A DNA stretch of 64,000 nucleotides from a virus (IMGVR_UViG_3300035494_000060:1-64000); one strand, 5' to 3'. Counted from the first letter of the stretch, positions 1,053-42,807 are shown. The notes: generated by a model not told the origin, from the letters alone. Made by a program: numbers and translations.

Positions 1053-3422
1053 TTAGCTCCAGGCGGGCAGGTTGTCGAGGTCAGGTTTTTCCAGCATGTC
1101 CGCCAAGTTTGGCCCCACTTCGTAGTCAACCTCAAACTTCAATTGCGGCTTCCACCCAAAATACTCGGTGATCGGCAGGTTCTCCATGATGCGCTGGACC
1201 TCGGGGACCCAGGTCTTCAGCTCGTCGATCTTGACGTAGGCTGTCAGGGCATCGTGGGTCATAAGGAAGAACTGGCAGCCCTCAGGCGTGCCGTGTTCCC
1301 GCTCAAACTCGGCCATGGCCAGCTGCGACAGGTCGGAGAGGGTCGACTGTACCGGGGAGTTCACGGCCTGCCGCTCCGCCTTCGACACGACATCGTAGAA
1401 GCTCGATGCCAGCTGTGGGAGGTGGCGGATGCGCCCCAACGGGGAGCGGATCATCTGGTGCTTCTTGGCGTAGCGTATTGAGTTCTCGTGCCACTTCGGC
1501 AGCATCGGGTACTCGTCGAAGAACGCCGCATGCTGGAACTCGGCCTCCTTCAGGCTGATGTGCACCCCATAGGTGTCTCGCGCATAGTTCTGGTAGCCCG
1601 CCGGCTGCATGCCGTAGATCAGGCCGAAGTTGCCGGCCTTCCCACCCTGGCGAATCTTCTTGATCAGTTTCTTGGCCGCCTCGTCGTCAGAGGCCTTCAT
1701 GGCCAGGGCCTGCTCCAGGGTGTAGCCGTTCAGCTTGGCGCCGGTGGCGAGGTGCAGGTCAATCTTCGCCTCGTACACCTCGATCATCCGGGTCTCGTTG
1801 GCGAGGCAGGCGGTAATGCGCAGCTCGCCCTGGGAGTAGTCCCAGTTCACGATCACGTAGCCCTCGGGGGCGTCATAGCACTCCCGCAGGCGGTGAGCCC
1901 AGGCGCTGTGCTTGGGGATGGTCTGCACGGCGGGGTCCTTGGCGGCGAGGCGCCCGGTCACGGTGCCGGATTCGCCCGAGTCGCCATAGTCGCCACGGTA
2001 CTGCACGTAAGTCGGGTGGAAGCGGCCGTCCGGGCACATGTGCGCCATGAAGCCATCGACGAAGGTCCCGAGGGTCTTGGTTGCCGAGTTGTAGCGCTTG
2101 AGGATGCCCATGAACTCCAGGGCCTCCGGCTCGTCTTCGAACATCTTCAGGTGATTCATGGCGGTGGAGGGCAGCCCATCCTTCGCCGTGACCATCTTCG
2201 GGGTGAGGTTGAGCCCATAGCCGGTGAACAGGAAGTCCCTGATCAGCGCCGCACGGGTCAGGGACAGGTTGTCCCGGTACTTGATGCGCAGCCGGCGCGG
2301 CATCATCGCCAGGGCTTCCTTCTCGGCGGCTGCGATCTCGGCCTTCAAGTCGCCGCGCAGAATCTCGACTTTCACCGGGTTAACGTGGATGCCCACGTGC
2401 TCCATGTTGTGGAACGCCAGGGTCGCCGGGTGCAGCAGCTTGACGTAGAAGGTCGCCAGCTTCTGGTCCTGCAACAGCTCCGAGGTCATGGAGTCGGCCA
2501 CCTGGTAGCAGGCATCGGTGTCGCCGCCCGCGTACTCCAGCAGGTCGTCATCCGGGATCAGGTCCATGCGGCCCTTGTCATACTTCTCGTTGAACTCCGC
2601 ATCATAGCCACCCATGTTGGTGCGCTGGTTGGCGTGCGCGGTCAGGCTGTTACTGCTGTTCTCGTCGAGCAGCGATCCGACCAGGGTGGTATCCATGCTG
2701 AAATTGGTGCACCGGATGCCCCACTTGTGGCGAATCCAGCGCAGGTCGTACTTGAAGTTCGCCCCCCGGACCTTGATGCGCGGGTGGGTCAAGAGCCATT
2801 CGATCTGTGAGTGCAATTGGTTGCACGGCTGGTCGTGCAAGCCCTTGAAGCGGATAGCGTCCGCCTGCCCAGGCTTGTAGGTGAAGCTGATGCTGACAAT
2901 GAACTTCTCGGGGTCAAAGGCATTGAGGCCGACCGTCTCCAAGTCACAGGTCAGGGTCACGGCCTTGGGGCTAGAGTCCAGGCGCTTCTTGATCCAGGCG
3001 ATCAGGTCGCTGAAGTCTGTAACCCAGCGGTAGTGCCCTGTCTGCGGGGCCAAGGTGCCGGTCTCATGCAGGCGCATGGCCAAGCGCAGGTCCCACTGGA
3101 TGTCGATCAGGCGGCCATAGTCCGTCCAGACCAGGGAGGCGTCGTAGCTCGCCAGGGTCCGGGCGGTCCCGGTGGGGTACTCGACCATGAAGACCTTCCC
3201 CCGGTTTGACCCCAGGGTGCTCTTCTTCCTGGCCAGCTTTTGCTCTTCCAGCAGCTCCAGTGCTGACTTGCCCGTGAGCAGCACGACATCCTTCTCGGCG
3301 TCCAGCTCGGGCAGGTGCCCAACAGACGCCACAAACTGGTGGCCCACCCCACTGCCACGCAGGACCGGCCCCCAAAACCGTTTGATGGCGTCCTGCTTGG
3401 ACTTCGTGATCACGTAGAGCAT
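1053..3422 (-). CDS. family A DNA polymerase with 3'-5' exonuclease domain
   Basis: ORF 1053..3467, start reset to ATG 3422 (MLYVITK) after GGAGGG. Exo I CDLETVGL, motif A DYSQGELRI, motif B RQGGKAGNFGLIYGM, motif C LMTHDAL. Confidence 0.9.
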   Translation of the reverse strand: MLYVITKSKQDAIKRFWGPVLRGSGVGHQFVASVGHLPELDAEKDVVLLTGKSALELLEEQKLARKKSTLGSNRGKVFMVEYPTGTARTLASYDASLVWTDYGRLIDIQWDLRLAMRLHETGTLAPQTGHYRWVTDFSDLIAWIKKRLDSSPKAVTLTCDLETVGLNAFDPEKFIVSISFTYKPGQADAIRFKGLHDQPCNQLHSQIEWLLTHPRIKVRGANFKYDLRWIRHKWGIRCTNFSMDTTLVGSLLDENSSNSLTAHANQRTNMGGYDAEFNEKYDKGRMDLIPDDDLLEYAGGDTDACYQVADSMTSELLQDQKLATFYVKLLHPATLAFHNMEHVGIHVNPVKVEILRGDLKAEIAAAEKEALAMMPRRLRIKYRDNLSLTRAALIRDFLFTGYGLNLTPKMVTAKDGLPSTAMNHLKMFEDEPEALEFMGILKRYNSATKTLGTFVDGFMAHMCPDGRFHPTYVQYRGDYGDSGESGTVTGRLAAKDPAVQTIPKHSAWAHRLRECYDAPEGYVIVNWDYSQGELRITACLANETRMIEVYEAKIDLHLATGAKLNGYTLEQALAMKASDDEAAKKLIKKIRQGGKAGNFGLIYGMQPAGYQNYARDTYGVHISLKEAEFQHAAFFDEYPMLPKWHENSIRYAKKHQMIRSPLGRIRHLPQLASSFYDVVSKAERQAVNSPVQSTLSDLSQLAMAEFEREHGTPEGCQFFLMTHDALTAYVKIDELKTWVPEVQRIMENLPITEYFGWKPQLKFEVDYEVGPNLADMLEKPDLDNLPAWS
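2812..2825. repeat. 14-bp palindrome copy (TGCAAT-N2-ATTGCA family)
   Basis: TGCAATTGGTTGCA inside the polymerase gene, read as C-N-Q-L-H. Confidence 0.9.
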
Positions 3423-3435
3423 TGTCCCCTCCATA

Positions 3436-3465
3436 CAACAAAAGGCCGCAGGTCTCCCGGCGGCC
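3436..3465 (-). terminator. intrinsic terminator or attenuator directly upstream of the polymerase RBS
   Basis: Minus strand GGCCGC-N10-GCGGCC followed by TTTTGTTGT, then ATGGAGGGGACAATG. Confidence 0.55.
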
Positions 3466-3485
3466 ATGGTGTCAAGCGTTGGTTA

Positions 3486-3938
3486 TCACAGCTGGCCCGC
3501 TAGGCCGTCGAGTTGTGCCCGTACCCATTTTGCATCCACCTGGTGGGAGGTGTACTTCGCCACCAGCATGGGGATGAAGTAGTCCTCGATGTTCTCCGGG
3601 GTGCACATGCCGCCGGCCTTCAGCACCGCGTCCGGTACGCGGTCGACGGACTCGCCCTTCTCGTAGTCGAGCACCAGCAGGGTAGCGCGTTTGTCATCAG
3701 CGATACAGAGCGCGAAGCCCAGGTTCGACGGCCCACGGAGCACCACAGCCGCAGCGGTGGAGTCCAGTCGGGAGTCCCATACGATGAACTTGATCGGGAT
3801 CGAAAGCCCCTCGGCCAGTTTCAGCTGCATCTTCACGTGGCCATCGAACTTCTCACCGTTGCAGCTGAGGGTGGTGGCCCCCAGCGTGTCCACGAGTGCG
3901 GTGGCAATCACCATGTTCTTGCTATTGGCGTTCGTCAT
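3486..3938 (-). CDS. hypothetical protein
   Basis: ORF-track 150 aa. Its ATG overlaps the upstream stop by 1 nt (TGATG). No motif recognised. Confidence 0.6.
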   Translation of the reverse strand: MTNANSKNMVIATALVDTLGATTLSCNGEKFDGHVKMQLKLAEGLSIPIKFIVWDSRLDSTAAAVVLRGPSNLGFALCIADDKRATLLVLDYEKGESVDRVPDAVLKAGGMCTPENIEDYFIPMLVAKYTSHQVDAKWVRAQLDGLAGQL

Positions 3939-4186
3939 CAGTTCTGAGCCTTCTTCACGTGGACCCCTACCAGACGGGGCTTTTCATTCTCGATGGTGGT
4001 GGTGATGTCCAGACTGGCCACCTTGACCCCGAGGAACATCAGGTCTGCCTTGTGGTCCCGGCGCACGCCATTCACGATGCCATCGGTGATGACCAGCTCG
4101 GCGGTGTCGGGGAAGCCCCCCAGGATCGTGAGACCCTGGAAGCGTTGGCCAATCTTGGCGTGGTACAGCTCTTTGAGGTCGGTCAT
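3938..4186 (-). CDS. hypothetical protein
   Basis: ORF-track 82 aa. ATGA start/stop overlap with the upstream gene. Confidence 0.55.
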   Translation of the reverse strand: MTDLKELYHAKIGQRFQGLTILGGFPDTAELVITDGIVNGVRRDHKADLMFLGVKVASLDITTTIENEKPRLVGVHVKKAQN

Positions 4187-5037
4187 GCGCCGCTCCCTAG
4201 TTGTTCGCCGCTAAGGGCTTGAGTGATGATTGCGCCGCATGCGCGGATCAGATAGACAGCCCATCCAAGTGTGGCTGCCATGTCGGTGGTGCTCTTGATG
4301 TCCCCCAGGTGGATCGACAGGTAGCCGTCTGACTTGTTGAATCCTTGCGCAACCAGAGCGCCAGACACCTTGGGGAGCCCGGGGCCCTCCAGACGGATAG
4401 ACAGGGTGTCACCCTTCCAGCGGGCCGCACCCTTGACATCCCCCAGCATGAACACTCGGTAGACCGACCCCTTGCTGGTGGCCATGACCGGCTGGTTGAG
4501 GGCTGTAGCCTTGGCCAGGGCGCAGTCAGGTACTTGATTGTTGAGCACGCCATGGGGGGAGGACGTCGCCACGATGTACTGCTCCGTGGGGGCCTGAGTC
4601 AGGTCAAGCTCGAAGTAGGAGGGGCTACCCCCCACGCCCTTCGCTCCCCCCTTGAACTTAGCGCCCAGGGTCTGCCACGCATCCGCGAACGGGCTGGGTG
4701 CCTCGTCGCCATCCTGTGGGGGTAGGGGGTCCGGCTCCATTGGCTGGGCGATGACCGGGTGAGTGGTTTGTGTCTCCACCACGGGTATCCCTATGGAATT
4801 GCAGATCATCTGCAAGCTAGGGCTGGTGTGGTGGTTGCCCATGAACTTGTTTTTGCCGACCCCGATCACGTAGCCGGCCTTGCCCGCATTGATCGCCAGG
4901 GTCCCGATCCCGCCGTTGTCGTAGTAGGACTTCAGCGACTCATGCAGGTCGGCCAGCAGGTGGTTAGGGAGCACGCCCTTCAGCGCGCCGACCTTCTCCT
5001 GGATGGTCCCCTTGTTGATCTTGATGGTTACCGCCAT
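4183..5037 (-). CDS. hypothetical protein with MAVTIK N-terminus
   Basis: ORF 4183..5049, start reset to ATG 5037 after CATGGAGGGGCAC. N-terminus MAVTIKINKG. Lies downstream of promoter 5072..5100. Confidence 0.65.
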   Translation of the reverse strand: MAVTIKINKGTIQEKVGALKGVLPNHLLADLHESLKSYYDNGGIGTLAINAGKAGYVIGVGKNKFMGNHHTSPSLQMICNSIGIPVVETQTTHPVIAQPMEPDPLPPQDGDEAPSPFADAWQTLGAKFKGGAKGVGGSPSYFELDLTQAPTEQYIVATSSPHGVLNNQVPDCALAKATALNQPVMATSKGSVYRVFMLGDVKGAARWKGDTLSIRLEGPGLPKVSGALVAQGFNKSDGYLSIHLGDIKSTTDMAATLGWAVYLIRACGAIITQALSGEQLGSGA

Positions 5038-5071
5038 GTGCCCCTCCATGATTCCGTTTCGCTATGGGGGT

Positions 5072-5100
5072 ATTCTCGCACCCCCAGGCGTGTTCGTCAA
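5072..5100 (-). promoter_or_regulatory. conserved sigma70-like promoter P1
   Basis: TTGACG-N17-GAGAAT, followed by CATGGAGGG RBS. The TGA stop of gene 5097..5768 lies inside the -35. Confidence 0.7.
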
Positions 5101-5768
5101 ACGAATAGGCTGCGCGGGGTCTTGATCGGGGACAGGCCGATGTAGTTCTTCGCCTTGCTGCCGCCCTTGGGCGAGACTTTCGAGCTGGTGGGCGGGAAGT
5201 CCTTGAAGGCCTTGCCCGAGTGGCTGGCATGGCCATACCCGTCCCACCCCTTCGATTTGTACCCGTCAATCTTCTTGATGCCGAAGTGCTTGTGCAGGAA
5301 GTTGACCTGTGGGGTGGTCTCCACCGCGTGATCGCAATAGTGCTTGCGGACGTAGGTGATCGCGTCCTTCTCGCCGGTCATGTGGGCCACCAGGGCCGCC
5401 AGGACGGTGCCGGTGCGCCCGTGGCCACCGATGCAGCCGACAAACACCTTCTTGCCCGCCAGGATTTGAGAAGCCACGTACTCGATCATCTTGGCGAAGC
5501 GTATGGGGTCCTCCGGGGCGGTCATGTCCTTGATCAGGTACGGATGCACCTCGGGGGTTGGCTTGTCGCTGCCTGCATCGTCCCAAGGGGCCTTGCCGGC
5601 TACCGATCTGTATCCCCAATCCAGCGGGATGATGACATCGTGCTCCTGGTAGGCCGGGGTTGGGCTGGTGCACGACCCTCCGCTGACATAGTAGGTTTGG
5701 CCCCCTACCACAATCGGCATTTTCGGGTGCTTGGTGTGGCAGCCGCCACTGTACAGGTTGGTGACCAT
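5097..5768 (-). CDS. cysteine-based (CX5R) dual-specificity-type phosphatase
   Basis: P-loop VFVGCIGGHGRTG (C-X5-R-T/S-G) with an upstream acidic IKDMTAPED. AGGAG RBS before ATG 5768. Confidence 0.65.
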   Translation of the reverse strand: MVTNLYSGGCHTKHPKMPIVVGGQTYYVSGGSCTSPTPAYQEHDVIIPLDWGYRSVAGKAPWDDAGSDKPTPEVHPYLIKDMTAPEDPIRFAKMIEYVASQILAGKKVFVGCIGGHGRTGTVLAALVAHMTGEKDAITYVRKHYCDHAVETTPQVNFLHKHFGIKKIDGYKSKGWDGYGHASHSGKAFKDFPPTSSKVSPKGGSKAKNYIGLSPIKTPRSLFV

Positions 5769-5780
5769 GGTGGTTCTCCT

Positions 5781-6953
5781 TTAGGCCGTTCTGGCCAGCT
5801 TGACTACTGGGTATTTGTGGGTGCCGACGCGGGCGAACTTCTGGGTCGGGGTGGTTCCGCCAGGGGTCTTCACGTGGCCCCCCCAGACCAGATTGCACAC
5901 AGCCTCGACCACGTTGTGCTGGATGATGCCCTTGGCGCACTTCTGGAAGTCCTCCTGGGTGGACCCAGACTCCGCAAACAGGGACACAAGCATGGCCTGG
6001 TCGGAGTCCTTCGTCATCAGCGCGGTGACCTGCTTACAGGCCATGCTCTGAGCCCCGCTGCCTGACATGGTTGGCGACTTCGAACTGAAGATGCCGGTCC
6101 AGTTGACCCGAGCCTCCCAGGCCTCACCGTGCTCGGCCAGGGCCGCCTGATACACCCCGTGCGGCGTGTCGACCCCTGGGTACTTCTTGCCCTGGTTGGT
6201 GGTGACGTAGCGACCTATCTGGCCTATGCGCTGGATGTCCAGGTACAGATTGAACTCCGACCCATAGTTGCCAAACATGTAGCCCTTATTGAAGATCGGC
6301 CCATTGTTGTGGCAGAGGGTGTAGCTGGTGTCGACCATGGCATGCAGGTTGATGTCGCCATTGGCGTACTTGAACAGGGTGTCTGCGATGTTGGCCCACG
6401 GCTTGCCACCGTAGCCCCCACCAAAGACACCATGGTAGAAGATCGCCTCCAGGGTGCCGGCGAACTCGCGCAGCGGGATCGCATTCAGCTTCGGCATGGC
6501 GTTCGGGTCAAACAGCATCTGAGCCGTGCCGGAAGACCCGAGGGTGGCGGCCTTCTCGGTGTAGGTCTGGACCCAGGTCTTGATCCCAGGGAGCCCACGC
6601 TGCTGAAGGCGGTGCTTCATGTCGATGTTGCACATCAGGTCCGCCTTGTAGTGCACGTGACGGACTTCGCGGGCGATGATCATCAGCATGTAGAGGAGGG
6701 AGAGCCCGCAACAGTCCACCAGCTCGGTGTAGCACATGCGGTTGGCATTCTTCACCGCCGGGGAGGGCACCAGCTTGCCCGCATCGCGCAGGCGCCGGAC
6801 CTTCATCAGGTACTCGGTCGCCATGTAGAACCGGATCAAGGTGCCCTCGGGCGAGGCATGGGTCTTGTGCAGGTTGAATCTACGGAAGTTGGCCAGGGTG
6901 AGGTCGCTGGGGGCTGGCCGGAAAAGCGGGGAATTGAGCAGCATGTCTAGCAT
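5781..6953 (-). CDS. hypothetical protein (390 aa, orphan)
   Basis: ATG 6953 lies 8 nt after GGAGGG and downstream of P2. Gly-rich stretch FGGGYGGKPWANIAD. No family recognised. Confidence 0.7.
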   Translation of the reverse strand: MLDMLLNSPLFRPAPSDLTLANFRRFNLHKTHASPEGTLIRFYMATEYLMKVRRLRDAGKLVPSPAVKNANRMCYTELVDCCGLSLLYMLMIIAREVRHVHYKADLMCNIDMKHRLQQRGLPGIKTWVQTYTEKAATLGSSGTAQMLFDPNAMPKLNAIPLREFAGTLEAIFYHGVFGGGYGGKPWANIADTLFKYANGDINLHAMVDTSYTLCHNNGPIFNKGYMFGNYGSEFNLYLDIQRIGQIGRYVTTNQGKKYPGVDTPHGVYQAALAEHGEAWEARVNWTGIFSSKSPTMSGSGAQSMACKQVTALMTKDSDQAMLVSLFAESGSTQEDFQKCAKGIIQHNVVEAVCNLVWGGHVKTPGGTTPTQKFARVGTHKYPVVKLARTA

Positions 6954-6990
6954 TAGCGCGTCCCTCCATGTGGTGATCGCTATAGGGTCT

Positions 6991-7020
6991 ATTTTCTCAG
7001 GGCCCTGCCGTGTTCGTCAA
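6991..7020 (-). promoter_or_regulatory. conserved sigma70-like promoter P2
   Basis: TTGACG-N18-GAAAAT with an extended TGn. The upstream gene reads through it. Confidence 0.65.
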
Positions 7021-7407
7021 GCGGTTTGTGCACGCGCACGGGCGGTTGACAGGGGTGTCACCGGCGCCGCCACAGGCGGGGCAACCCTCGCCATGGCAGG
7101 TCTGGCACTCCTCATACACGAGGAAGGTGCCGCGCCCCTCGCAGTGAGTGCAATTGGTTGCAATCACCCCCAGGCGGCGGGAGTCCTCCAGGGACCCGTC
7201 TACCACCCGCACGCCAATCGCCCTGAACCTGTGGGTCAGGTGGGCATGGGTGTAGGGCATGGCCCGGCGCAGAACCTCGTCGGTGGTCAGGAGCGGGTAC
7301 AGCTCCTCCACCAGGGCTTGCAGCTGGGCCTCGGCAGCGGGGGTCCTGCGGACATCACGCACGGTACGGCACCTCGTCACGGCGCACGTTGATGTGCTTC
7401 GGGACAT
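6997..7407 (-). CDS. DnaJ-type cysteine-rich (CxxCxGxG) zinc-finger protein
   Basis: Repeats CTHCEGRG, CQTCHGEG, CPACGGAG. Start uncertain: ATG 7407, or GTG 7362 four nt before the upstream TGA. Confidence 0.55.
   Translation of the reverse strand: MSRSTSTCAVTRCRTVRDVRRTPAAEAQLQALVEELYPLLTTDEVLRRAMPYTHAHLTHRFRAIGVRVVDGSLEDSRRLGVIATNCTHCEGRGTFLVYEECQTCHGEGCPACGGAGDTPVNRPCACTNRLTNTAGP
7149..7162. repeat. 14-bp palindrome copy
   Basis: TGCAATTGGTTGCA inside 6997..7407, read as A-T-N-C-T. Confidence 0.9.
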
Positions 7408-7657
7408 CGAAGATCACGCGGGCTTGGTCCATCGCGCCACGGGTGCCCGCCCCGATCAGAATGTCCGGCATGACCTCGATCAGCTCCTGCTGGGTGATCA
7501 GGTACTCGTGGGCCGCGCCCTGGCACTCCACCTCGACGGTGAAGCTGCGGGTGGTGTGAATCTGCTTGACGGTGAGGGTCCCGCGTTGCTTCGGGTTCTG
7601 GACGTTCTCGCCCACGTGAACCTTCTTGCCGATTTCCAGACCTAGTGCGAGTGGCAT
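7355..7657 (-). CDS. hypothetical protein with CsrA-like terminal segments
   Basis: ORF 7355..7729, start reset to ATG 7657 after AAAGGAG. LALGLEIGKKVHVGENV and ARVIFDVPKHINVRRDEV resemble CsrA beta1-2 and beta4-5. Confidence 0.55.
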   Translation of the reverse strand: MPLALGLEIGKKVHVGENVQNPKQRGTLTVKQIHTTRSFTVEVECQGAAHEYLITQQELIEVMPDILIGAGTRGAMDQARVIFDVPKHINVRRDEVPYRA

Positions 7658-7661
7658 GGGG

Positions 7662-8063
7662 TCACGCTCCTTTGAAGATGGCCACGGCTGCGGTGGTGAG
7701 GCGCCAGGTGCTGCCCCCTTCCACGCCACGCCGTTCGATGGTTCGGTACACCAGGCCCTTCCCCAGCAAGATGGTCAGCTGGGAGGCGGTGTCGCTGTTG
7801 TTCTGCCTGAGCTGGACGGCCAGCTCCTTGGTAGACGCCTCGGCCAATAGCCTGAGCGCCTGCAAGCATATCGAGAGCTTGGAGCCTTGGCGAGGTAGCC
7901 GCACCTCGTTGGCCGGCAGCCCCGTGTGGATCGTGACCCCCTCGCGGGTGGTGCGCTCGATGGCACGCTGATACCCGCAGAGGCACTTGATCCAGACGTC
8001 GCCAACTGTCGTGTGCAGTCCAGCGCGTCCTGTGCACTTCGGGCACTCGATATGCAGCGTCAT
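7662..8063 (-). CDS. zinc-ribbon plus winged-helix (MarR-like) DNA-binding protein
   Basis: CPKC...CLCG at the N-terminus. C-terminal stretch LLAEASTKELAVQLRQNNSDTASQLTILLGKGLV looks like a wHTH. Confidence 0.6.
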   Translation of the reverse strand: MTLHIECPKCTGRAGLHTTVGDVWIKCLCGYQRAIERTTREGVTIHTGLPANEVRLPRQGSKLSICLQALRLLAEASTKELAVQLRQNNSDTASQLTILLGKGLVYRTIERRGVEGGSTWRLTTAAVAIFKGA

Positions 8064-8075
8064 TCATTTCCCTCT

Positions 8076-9908
8076 TCACCCGAGCAGGCCCTCCAGCGCC
8101 TCGTCAAGGTGAATGGCTGGCAGGGCAATGCTTTTGGACACTAGCCCCGCCTTTTGCAATTGCGCCAGGACATGCGGGCCCCCGAGCGCATTGTAAACAT
8201 AACTTTGTGCAATCACACCCTCCACCGATGCACTTAATTGCAATAGCTCCCCCAGGTTCGTCGGGGTGATGACCGCCTGCGCGCCCCCCGCGTACTGGTT
8301 GAACATGCCTATGAGGAACTCCCCCTCCTTCGTGAGGCCATGGGCCTCCGGCATCAGCCCATGCCCCGAGTCGGGGTCGTCCCAGCAACTGGTGACGGAC
8401 TGGAACACGTCTTCGAAGGGGGTGCCCTTGGCAATGACGCAGCCCGGGTGCCCGATCCCATCCCCCTTGGCGGCCTTCAGCATGCCCATCAGGACGTCCA
8501 GGCCCGCAGCGGTCTCCAGCTCGGGGTGGCCCATGTAGACGGCCCCGGTCAGACCATCGACGGTGATCTTCTGGCCCGCCGGGATGCCGGTCACGCCCGC
8601 GCAGCCGACCACGCAGGTCTTGTCCATGCCCCGGGCCACCACGGCGGCGTGGCAGGTAATCCCACCTGTGCTGGTGAGGATCGCCACGGACTTGACCATC
8701 ATCGGGAAGTCATCCGGGGAGGTTTCGTCCGCAATCAGGATGCCCTGGCCCTGCGCCGCCTCCAGCTGCTGCATGTTGAAACAGGCGATGCCGTGCACGG
8801 CCCCACCTCCCGCCGCCAGGCCGGTGAAGTCGGCCTTCGCGGACCCGGCCACGGTCGATACGCTGAGGCTCGGCACGATGCTCAGGGGGATGCGCTTGAG
8901 GGCGGCCTGTAGCGACAGGCGCCCGGCCTTCCACAGGTCCTGCGCGATGACCACGTGAGCGGTGGCGGTGCGCTTGGCCGTGCGGGTCTGGAGCACGTAG
9001 AGCTTGCCGGATTCGATGGTGAACTCGACGTCCTGGGCATCGTTGAAGTGCTCCTCCAGGGCCACGGCCAAATCAAGCACCTGCTCGTACAGGGCGGTGT
9101 CCAGGGTCTCCAGGTTCTTCGGGGTGACGGCCCCGGACACCACGTCCTCGCCCTGGCCGCACACCACGTACTCCCCCACCATCTTGTTCTCCCCGGTGGC
9201 TGGGTCGCGGGTGAACATGACACCGGAGGCCGACTTCTCGTCCCGGTTGCCGAACACCATCTTCTGGATGACCACGGCGGTGCCCCAGTTGTCCGGGATG
9301 TTGTGCTTGGCCCGGTACACGCGGGCGCGCTCGGAGTTCCAGCTGTCAAACACAGCCCGGATCGCCTGGGATACCTGCGCCAGAATCGAGTTGGGGAACG
9401 GGCCCGCCAACTGTTCGAACAGGTCTCGGTGGTGCTCGTACCGGCCCATGGCGTCCAGGTCTTCGCAGTGGTAGTCCTCCTTGGCGTGGCCGCGCACGGT
9501 GACGCCGAACATTTCGATCAGGCGGCCCCAGCTGTCGTAGGCGGCCTCCTTGCCGATGGCGTTGGCCAAGTGCCCGATGGTCTGCTCGGTGATGCCCACG
9601 TTCAGGATCGTGTCCATCATGCCGGGCATGCTGACCCGCGCGCCGGAGCGTACTGACACGCACGGGTTGGACTGGGTGAACAGCACCCCGTCGCTCTTGT
9701 CCAGGGCTTCTTGCGCCAGGGCTTGGCAGTAGTGGGCCCGGTTGGTCGAGTCCAGCTTCAGGTAGTCGACGCAGCATTGCGTGGGGATGATGATGGCCTC
9801 GGGCACTGGCAGCTTGAGGTCCTGGGACATGACAGCAAGGCCATAGCCCTTCCCGCCCAGGTGCTCCTTGGTCATCAGTTTGTCGGGGATTTCGTTGAGC
9901 AGGTACAT
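8076..9908 (-). CDS. PPDK/PEP-synthase-like dikinase (ATP-grasp plus phosphohistidine swivel domain) lacking the PEP/pyruvate TIM-barrel
   Basis: ORF 8076..9923, start reset to ATG 9908. GGKGYGLAVM nucleotide-binding motif, RTAKRTA, swivel motif GGITCHAAVVARGMDKTCVVG. About 610 aa, versus about 870 aa for PPDK. C-terminal ~150 aa unassigned. Confidence 0.8.
   Translation of the reverse strand: MYLLNEIPDKLMTKEHLGGKGYGLAVMSQDLKLPVPEAIIIPTQCCVDYLKLDSTNRAHYCQALAQEALDKSDGVLFTQSNPCVSVRSGARVSMPGMMDTILNVGITEQTIGHLANAIGKEAAYDSWGRLIEMFGVTVRGHAKEDYHCEDLDAMGRYEHHRDLFEQLAGPFPNSILAQVSQAIRAVFDSWNSERARVYRAKHNIPDNWGTAVVIQKMVFGNRDEKSASGVMFTRDPATGENKMVGEYVVCGQGEDVVSGAVTPKNLETLDTALYEQVLDLAVALEEHFNDAQDVEFTIESGKLYVLQTRTAKRTATAHVVIAQDLWKAGRLSLQAALKRIPLSIVPSLSVSTVAGSAKADFTGLAAGGGAVHGIACFNMQQLEAAQGQGILIADETSPDDFPMMVKSVAILTSTGGITCHAAVVARGMDKTCVVGCAGVTGIPAGQKITVDGLTGAVYMGHPELETAAGLDVLMGMLKAAKGDGIGHPGCVIAKGTPFEDVFQSVTSCWDDPDSGHGLMPEAHGLTKEGEFLIGMFNQYAGGAQAVITPTNLGELLQLSASVEGVIAQSYVYNALGGPHVLAQLQKAGLVSKSIALPAIHLDEALEGLLG
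8229..8242. repeat. 14-bp palindrome copy
   Basis: TGCACTTAATTGCA inside the dikinase gene, read as L-Q-L-S-A. Confidence 0.9.
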
Positions 9909-9944
9909 TGCCGTTCCCTCCATGTAGTGTTCGGCGTAGTGGAT

Positions 9945-9973
9945 ATTCTCGCGCTGACCCCTCCGTTCGTCAA
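9945..9973 (-). promoter_or_regulatory. conserved sigma70-like promoter P3
   Basis: TTGACG-N17-GAGAAT, then CATGGAGGGAACGGCAATG. The upstream gene's TGA stop lies inside the -35. Confidence 0.7.
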
Positions 9974-10266
9974 GCGGTGGTGAGGCCAGCCAGCTTCAGA
10001 AGGGCACGGCGGGTCTGGATGCTCATGCTATTGGTTTCGTCGGCGGTCTTCACCGCACCCCGGACCCAGCCCTTCAGGTACTCCTCCGGCTTGGTCGCTG
10101 CGATCTTCTTGGCCCGATCCAGGGTCTCGACATCCGCATCCACCTTCACCGGGTTGCCTTTGGCCTTGGCAGCCTTTGGCTTTGCCTGGGGGGTGTCCGG
10201 TGCTGGGGCCGGTGCTGGGGCCGGTGCAGGCGCAGCCGGGTCCTTCTTCTTAATCACTACAGCCAT
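9970..10266 (-). CDS. hypothetical protein with MAVVIKKK N-terminus and a (PA)n linker
   Basis: ORF 9970..10287, start reset to ATG 10266. MAVVIKKKDPAAPAPAPAPAPAPD. Confidence 0.6.
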   Translation of the reverse strand: MAVVIKKKDPAAPAPAPAPAPAPDTPQAKPKAAKAKGNPVKVDADVETLDRAKKIAATKPEEYLKGWVRGAVKTADETNSMSIQTRRALLKLAGLTTA

Positions 10267-10447
10267 CGACGCCTCCACGTACTCCATAACCCTTCATGCT
10301 TGCCGCCAGGATGGCCTCGCGGGCCGTCCCCTCTTGCGCCACGATGTCCCCCGTTTCGAGGACGACGCGCCACGTGCCGGCGCCATACTGCAACTTGCCG
10401 TAGGTGAACACCTTCGGCTGAGCCTTCTTCTTGATGGTTACTGCCAT
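10250..10447 (-). CDS. hypothetical protein with MAVTIKKK N-terminus
   Basis: ORF 10250..10555, start reset to ATG 10447, which overlaps the upstream stop (ATGGCAGTAA). Confidence 0.55.
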   Translation of the reverse strand: MAVTIKKKAQPKVFTYGKLQYGAGTWRVVLETGDIVAQEGTAREAILAASMKGYGVRGGVDGCSD

Positions 10448-28498: not shown

Positions 28499-28927
28499 TC
28501 AGGCCTTCCCTGTCGAGCCCAGGCCGCCTTCACCGCGCGGGGTGTCGGACAGCTCCTCGACCTCCTCCAGCTCTTCGCTGAAGTAGTCGACGATGGTCAG
28601 CTGGGCAATGCGCTCGCCCGCTTCGATGGTGTAGGCCAGGGCGCCGGTGTTGTGCAGGATCGCCTTCACCTCGCCCCGGTAGTCGGAGTCGATGTTGCCG
28701 GGGGCATTGACGATGGTGATGCCATGCTTGTGCGCCAGCCCTGAGCGGGGGCAGAGCAGCCCCACCTTGCCCCCCGGGATTTCCCAGGCGAAGCCCGTGC
28801 CCAGGGTCATCCGCTCGCCGCCTTGCAGGGTGTAGCCCTCCACGGTGCGCAGGTCGTAGCCGGCGGCGTGGGCGCTGGCGCGGGAGGGAAGGGGCAGGTC
28901 ATGGCTGCCGATACGCTTGATCTTCAT
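28499..28927 (-). CDS. dut: dUTP diphosphatase (trimeric dUTPase)
   Basis: ORF 28499..28951, start reset to ATG 28927 after AGGAG. AAGYDL, PRSGLAHKHGI, GNIDSDYRGEV, RIAQL. Confidence 0.9.
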   Translation of the reverse strand: MKIKRIGSHDLPLPSRASAHAAGYDLRTVEGYTLQGGERMTLGTGFAWEIPGGKVGLLCPRSGLAHKHGITIVNAPGNIDSDYRGEVKAILHNTGALAYTIEAGERIAQLTIVDYFSEELEEVEELSDTPRGEGGLGSTGKA

Positions 28928-28947
28928 GGTGTCTCCTCGATGGTTGT

Positions 28948-29250
28948 TCAAATGGCCCGTCCACCACGCTGGTGGTAGGCCAACAGGCGGGCCGCAGTCT
29001 CCTTGACCCAGGCGTCTGCCGGCAAGTGGTAGCCGGTGGAGCCGTCGAAGTCCTTGAAGGCCTCGTCATAGAAGCCAATCTCGCACCAGCCCCATTTGGC
29101 CAGATCGTTGGCCCACTCCTGCCAGCGGTCATCACTGACGATGGCCTCGTCCAGGTGGTAGTAGAGGTAGGAGTGGATCAGCATCTGTGACCGGCGGCGC
29201 TTGATCAGCTCGGGGGTCACTCGCTCCTTTCGCTTGATGGTGACCGCCAT
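28948..29250 (-). CDS. hypothetical protein with MAVTIKRK N-terminus
   Basis: ORF-track 100 aa. Confidence 0.6.
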   Translation of the reverse strand: MAVTIKRKERVTPELIKRRRSQMLIHSYLYYHLDEAIVSDDRWQEWANDLAKWGWCEIGFYDEAFKDFDGSTGYHLPADAWVKETAARLLAYHQRGGRAI

Positions 29251-31086: not shown

Positions 31087-31266
31087 TTACTCGTTCACGC
31101 CCAGGACCGGAGGCTGCCCGTACCACAGATGGCGCTCCACGACGGTGGACTCGATGCCATCCGCCACCAGGGCATCGCTGAAGCGCTGGGCATCCTCGGG
31201 ATGGGCGAACACGGCATAGATGCGGCCCGGGCAGTTGCCGGTGTCTTCTACCAGATGGACGTTCAT
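31087..31266 (-). CDS. hypothetical small protein (59 aa, below the ORF-track cutoff)
   Basis: Hand-translated MNVHLVEDTGNCPGRIYAVFAHPEDAQRF...GVNE. ATGA overlap with the RNase H stop. Confidence 0.45.
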   Translation of the reverse strand: MNVHLVEDTGNCPGRIYAVFAHPEDAQRFSDALVADGIESTVVERHLWYGQPPVLGVNE

Positions 31267-31784
31267 AAGGTCTCCTTGCAGTTAATTGCATTCGGGTACA
31301 GCAGCTTGTCGCGCTGGCGGCGCATGTGCTTCCTCGCCTCGTTGTCGCACCAGGTGTTGACCCAGTTGCGCGGGGTGCCGATGCCCTTATGGGCGGGCAC
31401 ATGGTTGATCTTGAGCCAGCAGTCCCAGGCGTCGAGCTGAGCCAGGGCGTCAGCCACCACACGCCCCACCTCCGGGATGGCCATGGACGCGGTGTAGCTC
31501 TCCAGCGCCTGCTTCACCCCCAGGCAGTCGACCACCAGCACCAGCCGGGTGGACCGGCCCCGCTCCAGGCGGCGGGCGAACTCGTTCTCGCCGGCCAGCT
31601 CCTGAATGGCGGTGCAGGCGGCCAGGATTTCCGCGCTATTGGAATCCGGGGCAATCAGGGCAAAGGCCCGCTGCAAGCGCAGGTCGCCATCCCCGCGTGC
31701 CCAAAAGGCGCCACCGGCGGCCTTGGTCTGCGGGCAATGGCTGGCGTCGGTGAAGACGGTGATGTTCTCGATGCTCACTCGCAA
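31263..31784 (-). CDS. RNase H-like nuclease
   Basis: VFTDASH, SAEILAACTAI, LVVDCLG, HVPAHKG...NTWCDNEA. This D-E-D-D arrangement is typical of RNase HI. Confidence 0.7.
   Translation of the reverse strand: MRVSIENITVFTDASHCPQTKAAGGAFWARGDGDLRLQRAFALIAPDSNSAEILAACTAIQELAGENEFARRLERGRSTRLVLVVDCLGVKQALESYTASMAIPEVGRVVADALAQLDAWDCWLKINHVPAHKGIGTPRNWVNTWCDNEARKHMRRQRDKLLYPNAINCKETL
31277..31290. repeat. 14-bp palindrome copy
   Basis: TGCAGTTAATTGCA at the RNase H 3' end, read as A-I-N-C-K. Confidence 0.9.
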
Positions 31785-35714: not shown

Positions 35715-36392
35715 TCAGGCGCGGAGGCGGATGACGTGGAGCAGCTCGGCATACTCACAGGCGGACTCGACCCCACGCAGGCGCGCCAGGGCGTCGGCGG
35801 CGTAGGTGCTGATCAGGTCCTCGGGTCCGCGCATCTGCGAGTGGTGCTGGTTCAGGGCCTCACGCTTGAGGTCCATCTGCTCGCTGATGTCGACGTACAT
35901 CCCGCCACGCCCCACGGTGAACTCCGCGCCCGGGCCCCAGCCGGTGGCCGGGTACTCGTAGGCCAGGACCTTCTCCACGTAGCGGGTGGCGGCACGCGGG
36001 CGGCAGGCGGCCATGGCGGCCCGGTGGGTGACCTCGTGGTCCTGGTGGGCAGAGGGCAGGGGCAGCAGTATCTCGCGGGGCTTGAGGTCCGCGATGGCGC
36101 CCTCGATCTTGCCGATCACCTCCTTGAGCGGGAGGGTGTCGAGCATGGTGTCCTTGTTCACGAAGCCATAGTGCACGCCATAGGCCCCCAGGACCTTGGC
36201 CGCCGCGTCTGCCTCCTCCAGGCGCACATGCCACCGCACGGTGTGGCCGGTGTCGAGGTGGGTGATGTCGCCCAAGGCCATGATCAGCACGTGCACCTCG
36301 GCGCCCTGCTGAGCGCGCTTGGCCATGTAGCCGCCACAGCCCAGCTCGGCGTCGTCAGAGTGGGGGGCAATCACCAGAATACGGTCAGGCAT
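35715..36392 (-). CDS. PIG-L/LmbE-family N-acetylglucosaminyl deacetylase
   Basis: ILVIAPHSDDAELGCGG and SAHQDHEVTH motifs. Confidence 0.8.
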   Translation of the reverse strand: MPDRILVIAPHSDDAELGCGGYMAKRAQQGAEVHVLIMALGDITHLDTGHTVRWHVRLEEADAAAKVLGAYGVHYGFVNKDTMLDTLPLKEVIGKIEGAIADLKPREILLPLPSAHQDHEVTHRAAMAACRPRAATRYVEKVLAYEYPATGWGPGAEFTVGRGGMYVDISEQMDLKREALNQHHSQMRGPEDLISTYAADALARLRGVESACEYAELLHVIRLRA

Positions 36393-38295
36393 CGGCCTGT
36401 TCTCCTTTGGTCTTGTTGGCGTCCGCTTTCTTCGGCTCTCGCACGGACGGGGGAATGTTGACGGGGGAAATGTCGTGCTCCAGCCAGATCGACATCTGCT
36501 GGGTCAGGCCCACCACCACGCCGGCCAGGGCGTCTGCACAGTCCTTGGAGCCGGTGGAGGGGTGGTCGATCTTGCTCTTCTTCGGGTCATACTCCACGGA
36601 CAGCAGCTCGCGGCGCAGGCGGGGGTGCTCGGGCAGGCGCAGGCGCCCGTCATAGATCGCCGCCTTCAGCAGGGCGTAAGGGGTCAGGTTGGTATCCATC
36701 GAGCGCATGCCGGTGATGAAGCCTTGCTGGCGCAGGGTCTGGAGCGAGTCCACCGACTGGAAGCTGTCGAAGCTGACCCACTTGATGTTCAGGCCCATGC
36801 CGCGCAGCTTATAGAGCATTTCACGGATGCGGTAGAAGAGGATTTCACCGCCCTGAGGTGGCGCCACTTCCAGGGTGAAGTCGGCGGTGATCTCCGGCCA
36901 TGTCTCGATGCAGTCGCCACGGTCGATGTTCTTGAAGCCTGACACGTGGCCGCAGGCTATCCCGGTGCTGTCTCCGCTGACCGAGAGGTCGATGTGGACC
37001 CAGCGCGGCTTGTGGCCGTCGACGATGCGGTTCTTGAAGGCCTTGATCTTGTAGGCCTGGAAGTCGGTCATCACGTCCGACAGCACGCTCAGGTAGTCTG
37101 GCCGCATGCAGCGGGCCAGGGCCTCGGTGTCCAGAATGTACGGGTGCTTGGCCAGGGTCGACACACCGGCGATCTCCCGCAGGGCATTGGTGATGTCCTT
37201 CTGGAACTCGGTCTTGTACTCCACGGGGATCGGCATCACCAGGGCGCGGTCCTCCGCCGTCAGCCCCGCCAGCGACTCCAGCACACGGGGCTTGCGGAAC
37301 TCGTCCCCGATGAACACGAGGAACGTGTCATCCGAGTAGGAGCCCTTGGGCTTCACCTCCCAGGCGCGCTTGTCGTAGATGAAGATGTTGGTGGAGCCGC
37401 GCTCCGCGATCTGCTGCTTCGACTCCTCTTCCTTGATGTCGGTGAACTGGCCCGGGAAGCGCTTGGACGACACGAGGCACAGCATGCCGTAGGTCTTGCC
37501 CCCCTTGATGAAGCGCGACTTGCGCCGGCGGGCGATGGAGTTGTAGAGGGCCCAGGCCTGGTCATAGGAGCCGCCGTCCACGGAGGCCTTCGACTTCTCG
37601 ATCACCGCCATGTAGTTCACTTCGTCGAGGATGCCGCCCATCACGTTCTGGCCGATGGCCGCCGTCTCCTGGCCGCTGAGGGGCAGCACCTCGATCCGGT
37701 TGGGGAAGACCAGCTTCGACTCGATGTCCTTGTCAAACGGCCAGACGTCCTTGAAGTAGTGGCTGCTCTCCATCAGCGAGCGGAAGCGGTTGTACTCCAG
37801 GGCCTTGGCGTGGGTGGCGCTGAGGGACTGGAACACGTAGAGGATTTCCGAGGCGCTGTCCAGGGAGAAGAACTTGTGGGGGTCCCGCATGCAACTGAGG
37901 ATGTACAGCTGGTAGGCGATGGCGTAGTGGGCTGCCGTGGTCTTGCCCGAGCCAATGCCGCCGGTGAACACGGCCTCGATGTACTTGCCGCTGGCCAGTT
38001 CCTCCAGCTCCTCCATGATCTTCGGGTAGACCGTGCCCTTCTTGTCCAGGAAGTAGGGGTCTTCGATGAACGTGCGGATGTCGACCGGCGTGTGCTTGTA
38101 CACGGTCATGTCCGCCATCCGCCGCATGTCCCCCGAGGCCAGGGAGCCCAGCAGGTTGCGCAGCCAGTGCTCGCGGGCCGCTGGGTCGCTGATGCCTTGG
38201 GCAATGGCTTCGATGCTCGGCCACTTCGGCCCCAGGACCTTCTGGAGCGTTGCAATCAATTGCACGGGGGTGAGGCGGGCCAGCGCGTCAGTCAT
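36385..38295 (-). CDS. terL: terminase large subunit
   Basis: ORF 36385..38310, start reset to ATG 38295. Walker A GGIGSGKT, Walker B GGILDEVNY. Nuclease-domain acidic residues in HIDLSVSGDSTGIACG and GSKDCADALAG. Confidence 0.85.
   Translation of the reverse strand: MTDALARLTPVQLIATLQKVLGPKWPSIEAIAQGISDPAAREHWLRNLLGSLASGDMRRMADMTVYKHTPVDIRTFIEDPYFLDKKGTVYPKIMEELEELASGKYIEAVFTGGIGSGKTTAAHYAIAYQLYILSCMRDPHKFFSLDSASEILYVFQSLSATHAKALEYNRFRSLMESSHYFKDVWPFDKDIESKLVFPNRIEVLPLSGQETAAIGQNVMGGILDEVNYMAVIEKSKASVDGGSYDQAWALYNSIARRRKSRFIKGGKTYGMLCLVSSKRFPGQFTDIKEEESKQQIAERGSTNIFIYDKRAWEVKPKGSYSDDTFLVFIGDEFRKPRVLESLAGLTAEDRALVMPIPVEYKTEFQKDITNALREIAGVSTLAKHPYILDTEALARCMRPDYLSVLSDVMTDFQAYKIKAFKNRIVDGHKPRWVHIDLSVSGDSTGIACGHVSGFKNIDRGDCIETWPEITADFTLEVAPPQGGEILFYRIREMLYKLRGMGLNIKWVSFDSFQSVDSLQTLRQQGFITGMRSMDTNLTPYALLKAAIYDGRLRLPEHPRLRRELLSVEYDPKKSKIDHPSTGSKDCADALAGVVVGLTQQMSIWLEHDISPVNIPPSVREPKKADANKTKGEQADA
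38251..38264. repeat. 14-bp palindrome copy
   Basis: TGCAATCAATTGCA (perfect arms) in terL codons 11-15, read as V-Q-L-I-A. Confidence 0.9.
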
Positions 38296-38965
38296 TGGCC
38301 ACCTCCCCATCGATCACGTCGCCCAGCCCCAGCTCCATCAGGGCTTGCTGGGTGGCCATGGCCAGCTGCTGGTTCACGGTTCTGGAGTCTTCCACGTACT
38401 TGGCCCCATCGGTGTCTCTGAGGTGTGCCGTCATATCGAACTTGCGCGACACGCGGCGGAGCAGGCCGGTCTCCATCTGGAGGCGGGCCAGTTCGGACAG
38501 GGTGTCCTTGTACAGGCGGATGTCAGCCGAGAGGCTGGTGATCAGGGTGGGCAGTGACTGCTCGCGCACCAGCATCTTGGAGACCCTGCCCTTCTGCGCC
38601 ATGCACAGCTGTTGCAGCTCCAGCATGACGTCGAACTTCTCCTCCAGGTCGGCCAGGATGATCTTGCGCCGCCCATCATCGAGGGTCTCGCTGTACACCG
38701 CCAGCCGGGTGGCGAGTTCCTTGTCCTTGTAGCGCTGGAGCTGGCGGGACAGGGTGAGCTGCTGGATGTCCTGGAACAGCCCCCAGTCGTCCTGGATGAT
38801 GGCGGCCACCTTGAGGCAGGCGTCACCTTTGATCAGCATCTGCTCCACCGCAGCCAGTCGCTCATGCCCCAGCCCCTTGATCCGCTCAAAGGGCTTACGA
38901 CTTGGGTTGCGCTTCTTGGTGCCCTTCTTGGGCCCCGGCTTTTTCCGGGCAGGCGTGGTGGTCAT
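38288..38965 (-). CDS. putative terminase small subunit
   Basis: Lies immediately upstream of, and overlaps, terL. Basic N-terminus followed by an HTH-like segment. The call rests on position and composition. Confidence 0.5.
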   Translation of the reverse strand: MTTTPARKKPGPKKGTKKRNPSRKPFERIKGLGHERLAAVEQMLIKGDACLKVAAIIQDDWGLFQDIQQLTLSRQLQRYKDKELATRLAVYSETLDDGRRKIILADLEEKFDVMLELQQLCMAQKGRVSKMLVREQSLPTLITSLSADIRLYKDTLSELARLQMETGLLRRVSRKFDMTAHLRDTDGAKYVEDSRTVNQQLAMATQQALMELGLGDVIDGEVAND

Positions 38966-38974
38966 CTTGGCCCC

Positions 38975-41310: not shown

Positions 41311-41351
41311 GTTGTCATTCCCTCCTTGTCAGTGTTGGTGTGGTGTCGCGC

Positions 41352-41381
41352 ATCTTACAGGTCGACTTCCTGTGCAATCAA
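41352..41381 (-). promoter_or_regulatory. candidate promoter of the glycosyltransferase-ParB-terS-terL operon
   Basis: TTGATT-N18-TAAGAT in the 204-bp non-coding gap. The -35 lies inside a near-palindrome copy. It differs from the P1-P25 family. Confidence 0.35.
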
Positions 41382-41386
41382 TTACA
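41373..41386. repeat. 14-bp palindrome, one-mismatch copy
   Basis: TGCAATCAATTACA overlapping the candidate -35. Confidence 0.55.
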
Positions 41387-41460
41387 AGTCTCTTCCCTAT
41401 GGTAATGACGTTCTTCTCCTCTCTCTTGTGTGTCTCTGTGACATGGGTTCTTTCCCCCCA

Positions 41461-41496
41461 CAAATGGAAAGCCCCCGGTGGTGTTCCGAGGGCTTC
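41461..41496 (-). terminator. candidate intrinsic terminator after the WbqC-like gene
   Basis: Minus strand AAGCCCTCGG-AACACCA-CCGGGGGCTT followed by a weak T tract, TCCATTTG. Confidence 0.4.
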
Positions 41497-41514
41497 TTGT
41501 GGTTCCGGGGGTAG

Positions 41515-42806: not shown

Positions 42807-42807
42807 T
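42763..42807 (-). pseudogene. 14-codon remnant of the original WbqC-like 5' end (MKVTCNQTLLLPYG)
   Basis: Its ATG 42807 overlaps the methyltransferase TGA (ATGA). Its TAA stop lies 8 nt inside the HNH ORF. Confidence 0.55.

Follow-up and report, generated by a model that had tools for sequence, protein, structure and literature searches.

We analysed a 64,000-nucleotide stretch of DNA (IMGVR_UViG_3300035494_000060:1-64000, hereafter the window), in which a truncated pyruvate phosphate dikinase (PPDK)-type enzyme, an uncharacterised protein of 390 residues (p390) and a cysteine phosphatase are encoded just upstream of a family A DNA polymerase (PolA). The window is a fragment of a phage genome, in agreement with an initial annotation made from the sequence, and also encodes a terminase homologue, ParB, RecA, helicases, a primase, a dUTPase, an RNase H and a lysozyme. 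Window proteins are also found on an 85,432-bp metagenomic contig, and a DNA-level search of a phage collection for near-identical sequences returned no match; no sequenced phage is close. All open reading frames (ORFs) listed in that annotation exist at their coordinates on the minus strand, on which all genes of the region lie. The dikinase (8076..9908, 610 residues, in a 615-residue ORF extending to 9923) is composed of an ATP-grasp domain, a phosphohistidine swivel domain (GGITCHAAVVARG) and a 146-residue tail. p390 (5781..6953) is, by its profile and AlphaFold model, an all-alpha member of the uncharacterised family phrog_20946, and the phosphatase (5097..5768, 223 residues) belongs to the protein tyrosine/dual-specificity phosphatase (PTP/DSP) superfamily. 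PolA, which contains a 3'-5' exonuclease, occupies 1053..3467, and beyond it the start of the portal gene runs off the window edge. In our favoured reading, the dikinase, p390 and phosphatase genes form a phosphotransfer cassette that belongs to the replication module and is both conserved and co-regulated. Its parts come from known superfamilies; together they match no system described so far, and no function has been assigned to the cassette in the literature that we found.

The initial annotation had described the dikinase as an ATP-grasp and swivel protein lacking the phosphoenolpyruvate (PEP)/pyruvate TIM barrel, and this description is right. Pfam matches are restricted to PPDK_N (1.4e-47) and PEP-utilizers (3.8e-21), with no match to the barrel family PF02896 (PEP-utilizers_C). 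The protein aligns with residues 15-512 of Clostridium symbiosum PPDK (EC 2.7.9.1; PDB 1KBL/1DIK) with an E value of 1e-84 and ~43% identity, and the alignment spans GGITCHAAVVARG, which carries the G-G-x-T-x-H motif of the PPDK swivel domain. The ATP-grasp domain with its catalytic Arg, Asp, Glu and Gln is likewise present, as concluded from the PPDK_N match, the alignment with 1KBL and residue conservation. An alignment of 65 viral dikinase homologues has 70 columns with a conservation of 97% or more, of which 68 show the residue found in authentic PPDKs. Among the conserved positions are the equivalents of R92, G101, M103, D321, E323, Q335, R337 and the catalytic His (H455), which presumably have the same roles as in PPDK. 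Because these catalytic residues are conserved, the protein is almost certainly still capable of the ATP/Pi half-reactions and of His phosphorylation: ATP and enzyme-His would yield AMP and enzyme-His~PP, and then His~P. Translation from position 9908 (MYLLNEI) is backed by a public gene call (P0008), by a homologue (P0009) and by a leader sequence, ACATGGAGGG, with the ATG 7 nt further on.

The phage enzyme differs from PPDK in that the ~340-residue TIM barrel is gone and a short, fast-evolving tail is found in its place, and in being encoded in a phage replication module. Many of the matched homologues share the truncation, with 230-290 residues following the His motif compared with ~420 in real PPDK; together with the window protein, their tails range from 146 to 290 residues. 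For phages that are being considered for use in aquaculture and for Stenotrophomonas therapy, the dikinase is routinely reported as an auxiliary metabolic gene (AMG) of glycolysis, an ordinary PPDK that would boost host glycolysis or gluconeogenesis (PMC9229204, PMC10141217, PMC10671443). The ~43% identity of the N-terminal 470 residues to real PPDK speaks for this assignment. However, neither the window protein nor the phage homologues among the matches contain the barrel, the tail does not resemble it, and the score against the PPDK model TIGR01828 (418 bits) is far under the cutoff of 843. Without a pyruvate/PEP domain a glycolytic role is not possible, and the phosphoryl or pyrophosphoryl group must go to another acceptor. 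As judged from the domain content, the published label cannot be right, save with a separate PEP-binding subunit, and we consider a glycolytic function exceedingly improbable.

The initial annotation had left the C-terminal tail unassigned and pointed to dikinases with swapped acceptor domains. In the window protein the tail comprises residues ~470-615 of the 615-residue ORF (8079..8516, minus strand) and is lineage-specific, its sole homologue being that of P0009 (47% identical). It has no similarity to the tails of other phage dikinases or to real PPDK barrels in phmmer and hhalign comparisons (barrel probability 0.3%) and no match among 5.8 billion proteins searched by word index; its AlphaFold model, built from a three-sequence alignment, has a predicted local distance difference test (pLDDT) score of 46. 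Among the truncated homologues, 149 of ~160 tails form one homologous group without a single invariant residue. By hhalign this family tail has no detectable likeness to the PPDK barrel beyond the linker, and its profile retrieved only noise from PDB and Pfam, including a de novo TIM-barrel match (E 0.007) without a passing stretch. Since the family tail contains no conserved residue, it is probably not an acceptor-binding catalytic domain. Candidate sites for the acceptor chemistry are the ATP-grasp site and p390, which is rich in invariant polar residues.

We compared the dikinase to other enzymes that transfer phosphate via a swivel domain. Rifampicin phosphotransferase, glucan-water dikinase, phenylphosphate synthase and the ligases PigC and RedH all deliver an ATP-derived phosphohistidine group to an acceptor other than pyruvate, and in phenylphosphate synthase the acceptor site can reside on a separate subunit. 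The phage enzyme differs from rifampicin phosphotransferase and glucan-water dikinase in its domain order, its swivel domain being central and not C-terminal as in rifampicin phosphotransferase. It has no conserved acceptor domain, and its NCBIfam scores against enzymes of this group are far under the cutoffs, with 78 bits for the rifampicin phosphotransferase model NF041857 (cutoff 999). The closest architecture is that of short cellular 'PPDK' proteins (NF004531/PRK05878, a 534-position model), which also contain the two domains without the barrel. The phage protein covers positions 21-462 of this model with 398 bits, under the cutoff of 456, and no link of its cellular members to p390 or PTP genes is known. 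Matches to the dikinase from Enterococcus, Listeria and human-faecal 'phages' were left unused; two fetched loci contain ORFs of ~890 residues, the full length of PPDK, and these unverified records are probably bacterial.

p390 had been called an orphan, which was not borne out: its relatives form 783 cluster representatives (E<=1e-3 among 1.84 billion representatives, clustered at 50% identity), most of them 330-370 residues long. Pfam, NCBIfam and PDB sequence searches with p390 gave no match, PHROGs returned function-less entries only, none of 94 family members matches any Pfam family, and the family profile has no match in the PDB. The alignment of these 94 sequences contains 20 invariant columns, mostly polar or charged, which include the motifs R95-E96-x-R98-H99, G182-G183-x-x-W186, D208, H215-N216, P219, N222-K223 and D239-x-Q241. 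The AlphaFold model (pLDDT 78; predicted template modelling score 0.79) is all-alpha. A Foldseek search with this model, which the initial annotation had suggested, found nothing below E=1 in the PDB and only p390's own family in BFVD. p390 has no sequence or structural relative outside its own family. In the model, a Gly-rich loop and a Lys are located at the N-terminus of helix 184-197 and may together form a phosphate-binding site. Longer p390 homologues contain no informative domain fusions. The window protein has a lineage-specific C-terminal extension of ~100 residues, in common with one other contig, L175. Neither structure nor sequence supports a relationship of p390 with ThyX.

The phosphatase had been assigned to the dual-specificity type with a CX5R motif, and we arrived at the same class. 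Its loop VGCIGGHGRTG corresponds to the superfamily P-loop, the Pfam family Tc-R-P DSP-PTPase is matched above cutoff (28.8 versus 27 bits), and PTP-SAK (26.5 versus 27) and DSPc (16.6 versus 33.5) remain below theirs. The best PDB matches are the archaeal PTPs Tk-PTP (5Z59) and SsoPTP, and DUSP23. The segment IKDMTAP aligns with IPDFTAP of Tk-PTP and provides a candidate general acid Asp, a role that we take over from the Tk-PTP family. By these motifs the enzyme appears active. It shares with archaeal and atypical PTPs the P-loop pattern C-[IM]-G-G-x-G-R-[ST]-G, the aligned Asp and a similar core size, and differs from them in having a Gly rather than a His before the catalytic Cys, a conserved His within the P-loop, a low-complexity C-terminal extension and a viral context. 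Related phages encode two such phosphatases, one on either side of p390 (PTP1 and PTP2), with the catalytic motif kept in both; the window protein is the PTP2 orthologue. The P-loop sequence GCIGGHGRTG is found in 67 of 82 PTP2 orthologues, and PTP1 varies at one position. PTP1 is absent from the window and from L175, the only contig with the same dikinase tail type, and present in 73 of 74 other loci. The loss of PTP1, the short unalignable tail and the extended p390 may be connected in this lineage, for example through an interaction of the tail with PTP1. The PTP2 orthologues of phages DLP5 (gp143) and DLP3 are labelled 'thymidylate synthase ThyX', as is PHROG 17568 ('thymidylate synthase'); these labels look erroneous, as the sequence is that of a CX5R phosphatase.

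The initial annotation had linked these genes by proximity only and named a lack of co-occurrence in other genomes as a refutation. The outcome is decisively the opposite: the genes keep a fixed order in nearly every related locus and disappear together, a link far stronger than proximity. In tblastn searches, dikinase, p390 and phosphatase were found together in phages of Stenotrophomonas (DLP5, DLP3, Summit), Vibrio (SIO-2, VHS1, VH2_2019 and others), Rhizobium and Rhodobacter. Over ~130 phage and prophage loci, an order of dikinase, the genes for a 133-residue protein (p133), a CsrA-like protein and zinc-finger protein, PTP1, p390, PTP2, a conserved protein termed p288, PolA and portal is nearly universal. 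It is fixed in all 80 IMG/VR loci collected with a p390 profile and in 10 of 10 genome loci. Together with three reference phages and the window, the 80 IMG/VR loci make up a set of 84, of which all contain PTP and p390, 80 contain p288, 80 PolA and 79 the dikinase. We also anchored the comparison on PolA, examining 80 of 568 IMG/VR candidates; 40 of the 42 loci with enough upstream sequence contain dikinase, p390 and PTP, two contain none of them, and no intermediate was seen. Among 185,579 species genomes only 10 loci were found, all with the cassette, one of them (L169) as a rearranged remnant. The cassette occurs in hundreds of phage genomes, and the phages that carry it form a large clade of ~80-100-kb siphoviruses of the DLP5/DLP3, SIO-2/VHS1, RcZahn and RHph_TM16 types.

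It could be argued that the genes have no joint function and are syntenic members of a replication module that act independently. All loci come from a single phage lineage with strong synteny from terminase to portal, and PTP1 can be lost alone. Yet the trio is present or absent as a set, its order outlasts a divergence of p390 to ~25-30% identity, and p390 and PTP2 lie 12 nt apart, from stop codon to gene start, behind a common promoter. We therefore regard independent function as improbable.

Promoters in the region had been noted before, and promoter-like sites indeed precede the dikinase, p390 and p288 directly (9945..9973, 6991..7020 and 5072..5100, all on the minus strand). They belong to a motif, TTGACGAAC-N11-12(G-rich)-G(C/G)GAGAAT, of which the window contains 10 exact copies where 0.01 would be expected by chance, all on the minus strand between 5072 and 35648 and all upstream of gene starts. 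The motif is predicted to represent a class of phage promoters that serves the 5-36 kb region. Behind each of the three copies stands the leader ACATGGAGGG, which is an extended Shine-Dalgarno sequence, with a start codon 6-9 nt further on. This leader occurs at 29 minus-strand sites with at most one mismatch (7 expected), for example at 9916-9925, 6962-6971 and 5042-5051. The same motif before three units indicates that the cassette is expressed as three units, which share their promoter class with the upstream block of small genes, and the last of which contains PolA.

Several lines of evidence bear on the substrate of the cassette. One locus without the cassette, L140 (IMGVR_UViG_3300014202_000994, 7015-8372), contains in its place a HAD/PNKP-type phosphatase (Pfam 1e-8) and a thymidylate-kinase homologue (1e-18), preceded by terminase and followed by two small genes, PolA (933 residues, with an extra N-terminal region) and portal. 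A different kinase/phosphatase pair thus occupies the slot in which the cassette normally sits. Genes for deoxynucleoside monophosphate (dNMP) kinases of the T4 gp1 type are located no more than 10 kb from the cassette in ~10 loci, mostly directly upstream of the dikinase, and dCTP-deaminase-like genes are found near it in four loci, in Vibrio phage VH2_2019 again directly upstream of the dikinase. As a further nucleotide-metabolism gene, the window itself contains that of the dUTPase. Finally, DNA of phage DLP3, which carries the cassette, resists 15 of 15 restriction enzymes tried (PMC7326821). On the basis of the L140 swap, these nucleotide-type neighbours, the operon link to PolA and the DLP3 resistance, we favour a role in deoxynucleotide or DNA chemistry for the polymerase, a target also named in the initial annotation and indirectly supported by these observations, and tentatively propose that the cassette edits the deoxynucleotide pool or the DNA itself for the adjacent PolA. 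p390 occupies a position where other phages keep DNA-modification or nucleotide-editing enzymes.

There is precedent for a kinase and phosphatases beside replication genes. In base-replacing phages a dNMP kinase is accompanied by a nucleotide phosphatase, as are gp1 and gp56 in T4. PBS1/2 has a dTMPase and a dUMP kinase (PMC12697855) as well as a dCTP deaminase, and it is a conventional pair of this kind that is found in L140. The cassette enzymes differ from these sets in being PPDK-type and PTP-type rather than P-loop and HAD/HD enzymes. In the nucleotide-pool scheme the dikinase would activate a non-canonical or otherwise limiting dNMP. If the ATP-grasp site were used, a (d)NMP would be converted to a (d)NTP by reversal of the first PPDK step; PPDK in vivo converts AMP, PPi and PEP to ATP. 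The cysteine phosphatases would clear away either the canonical nucleotide that competes or a phospho-intermediate that has not reacted, p390 would make or bind a phosphorylated nucleotide, and the outcome would be modified virion DNA resistant to host nucleases. In its most specific and more speculative form, the cassette would represent a new ATP-driven phosphohistidine transfer system, in which a barrel-less PPDK pyrophosphorylates non-canonical dNMPs or charges a p390-held substrate, p390 represents a new all-alpha fold, the PTPs serve as editing phosphatases or phosphocysteine carriers, and the DNA contains a new type of modification, in a widespread clade of phages from marine, soil and clinical hosts.

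Several observations weigh against an action on nucleotides or DNA. The scan of window ORFs turned up no known base-modifying enzyme (thymidylate-synthase-like hydroxymethylase, TET or DpdA), nor a P-loop DNA kinase for 5-hydroxymethyldeoxyuridine or a dUMP hydroxymethyltransferase, some small ORFs and ~21 kb of the genome lying outside the scan. Among solved structures, the phosphatase is most closely related to protein phosphatases. The cassette swap is known from one locus, and an ordinary dNMP kinase is also present in some relatives. The DLP3 resistance is one gel-based observation; resistance to SmaI and ApaI points to a modified C or G, for which a glycosyltransferase, a WbqC protein and a methyltransferase are candidates as well. 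PTP1 appears dispensable, as the window lacks it, and because all loci derive from one phage lineage the fixed order may in part reflect inherited synteny. Uracil-containing DNA in the window phage is disfavoured by the encoded dUTPase (28499-28951; Pfam 7e-29).

A related scheme places the chemistry after replication, with the dikinase phosphorylating a base hydroxyl in DNA, as 5-HMUDK does on 5-hydroxymethyluracil, p390 exchanging the phosphate for a nucleophile and the phosphatases clearing leftovers. PPDK-type enzymes are able to phosphorylate hydroxyls of rifampicin, glucan and phenol, and the NCBIfam matches include the ligases PigC and RedH. The thymidine hypermodification cluster of phage M6 likewise lies just upstream of a DNA polymerase (PMC5889632); more generally, the clusters of M6, ViI, SP10 and PhiW-14 combine a kinase and a transferase in this position with DNA that is presumed to be restriction-resistant, as observed for DLP3. 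The window genome also contains a block of glycosyltransferase, WbqC, methyltransferase and PIG-L genes. However, the kinase in these clusters is a P-loop enzyme and not PPDK-type, the two cysteine phosphatases are additional and none is required in known pathways, no hydroxymethylase is present among the scanned ORFs, and the L140 replacement is of the thymidylate-kinase and not the 5-HMUDK type. We also tried p390 as an aG/PT-PPlase and rejected it, with an hhalign probability of 0.1% against M6 gp51 and gp55 and no Foldseek match to a helix-hairpin-helix glycosylase. Post-replicative hypermodification is thus rather unlikely.

Alternatively, the cassette could act on proteins, in host take-over or counter-defence. 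The phosphohistidine would then phosphorylate a host or phage protein, and the PTPs would dephosphorylate host phosphoproteins or act as phosphocysteine carriers in a relay resembling the phosphotransferase system. The protein tyrosine and dual-specificity phosphatases among the nearest solved relatives of the phosphatase agree with such a role, Enzyme I uses the same swivel module to hand phosphate on to HPr, the promoter class is that of the small early gene block, and a fast-evolving tail would suit a protein-protein interface. Against it stand the fixed place in the PolA operon region, the replacement by nucleotide-type enzymes in L140, and the near-invariance of the PTP2 P-loop and of the polar p390 residues across phages of Vibrio, Stenotrophomonas, Rhizobium, Rhodobacter and others. 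Near-invariance across such different hosts is easier to reconcile with a universal substrate, a small molecule or a nucleic acid, than with a host protein, and we consider protein targets unlikely. If proteins were nevertheless the targets, the cassette would contain a new kind of phage take-over kinase.

To our knowledge, the only known pairing of a PPDK-type dikinase with DSP-family phosphatases is that of plant glucan-water dikinase with SEX4/LSF2. Together with the glycan-type genes in the window, this precedent would suggest a polymer phosphorylation cycle that targets host glycogen, capsule or an envelope glycan. Yet library scans detected no carbohydrate-binding module in the dikinase, p390 or the phosphatase, the domain order is unlike that of glucan-water dikinase, and the cassette is located in the replication module, which makes such a cycle very unlikely. 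The preferred role in nucleotide or DNA chemistry would, if true, add phosphohistidine dikinases and cysteine phosphatases to phage DNA-modification enzymology. It would also explain restriction resistance of the DLP3 type, with consequences for host range, sequencing and therapeutic use. The initial annotation did not recognise this module, and as far as we found, the literature treats the dikinase as a glycolytic AMG only and contains no link of it to DNA modification or anti-defence.

The genes between dikinase and p390 were less uniformly in line with their initial descriptions. p133 (7662..8063, 133 residues, minus strand as all genes here; in 37 of 84 loci) contains a CxxC...CxC motif and had been proposed to combine a Zn ribbon with a winged helix-turn-helix, for which we found no match in Pfam, PHROGs or NCBIfam. 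The CsrA-like RNA-binding protein (7355..7657, in a 124-residue ORF at 7355-7729; in 77 of 84 loci) likely starts at MPLALGLEIG, giving 100 residues. At profile level its family matches eight CsrA structures in the PDB (E 7e-4 to 1e-2), and the orthologue in L169 passes the Pfam CsrA cutoff (28.5 versus 27 bits); the window protein alone has no Pfam match. The DnaJ-type zinc-finger assignment of the 136-residue ORF (6997..7407; in 68 of 84 loci) stands on CXXCXGXG repeats whose match is weak and below cutoff (E 1.8e-4). The core of the leader ACATGGAGGG, ACA-N-GGA, is similar to the consensus bound by CsrA. With a CsrA-like protein encoded in the cassette, this may reflect control of the phage's own operons at the level of translation. 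A (PA)n repeat (PAAPAPAPAPAPAPD) is present in a small protein (9970-10287) encoded directly upstream of the dikinase promoter.

The unit that ends with PolA begins with p288 (4183..5037, in a 288-residue ORF extending to 5049; in 80 of 84 loci), a conserved protein whose start at 5037 follows the leader and for which Pfam, PHROGs, NCBIfam and PDB sequence searches returned function-less PHROGs only. Two small overlapping genes (3486..4186, 82 and 150 residues) lie between p288 and PolA, and the overlap of their start and stop codons is consistent with translational coupling. PolA itself probably starts at 3422, after the leader CCATGGAGGG; its N-terminal ~140 residues, before the exonuclease domain, are conserved in the clade and have no Pfam match.

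Further from the cassette, the window contains a block from 35715 to 43433 that represents a second candidate DNA- or glycan-modification block and is shared with Vibrio phage VH2_2019. It encodes a PIG-L deacetylase (35715-36392), the terminase homologue (36385-38310), ParB (38975-39799), a 504-residue protein (39796-41310) that is annotated as a glycosyltransferase in VH2_2019, a WbqC-like protein (41515-42297), an HNH endonuclease (42294-42770) and an S-adenosylmethionine-dependent methyltransferase (42804-43433). The RNase H is located at 31263-31784 and the phage lysozyme at 59265-59774. In the rearranged locus L169 (6621-8510; Thalassobaculaceae metagenome-assembled chromosome OZ001190.1), a chimeric ORF joins part of the FAD domain of a class-A flavin monooxygenase to the PPDK swivel domain and tail, followed by CsrA-like, PTP1, p390 and integrase genes. 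We rejected it as a meaningful monooxygenase-swivel fusion, as only a partial FAD domain is present; this feature and the rearranged chromosomal region beside an integrase make it probable that L169 is a decayed prophage remnant. In four other loci (L011, L036, L044 and L049) the PolA ORF spans 4.8-5.6 kb and is thus roughly double its usual size, and the free-standing HNH endonuclease of the window clusters with these ORFs, which suggests intein or homing-endonuclease insertions in these polymerase genes.

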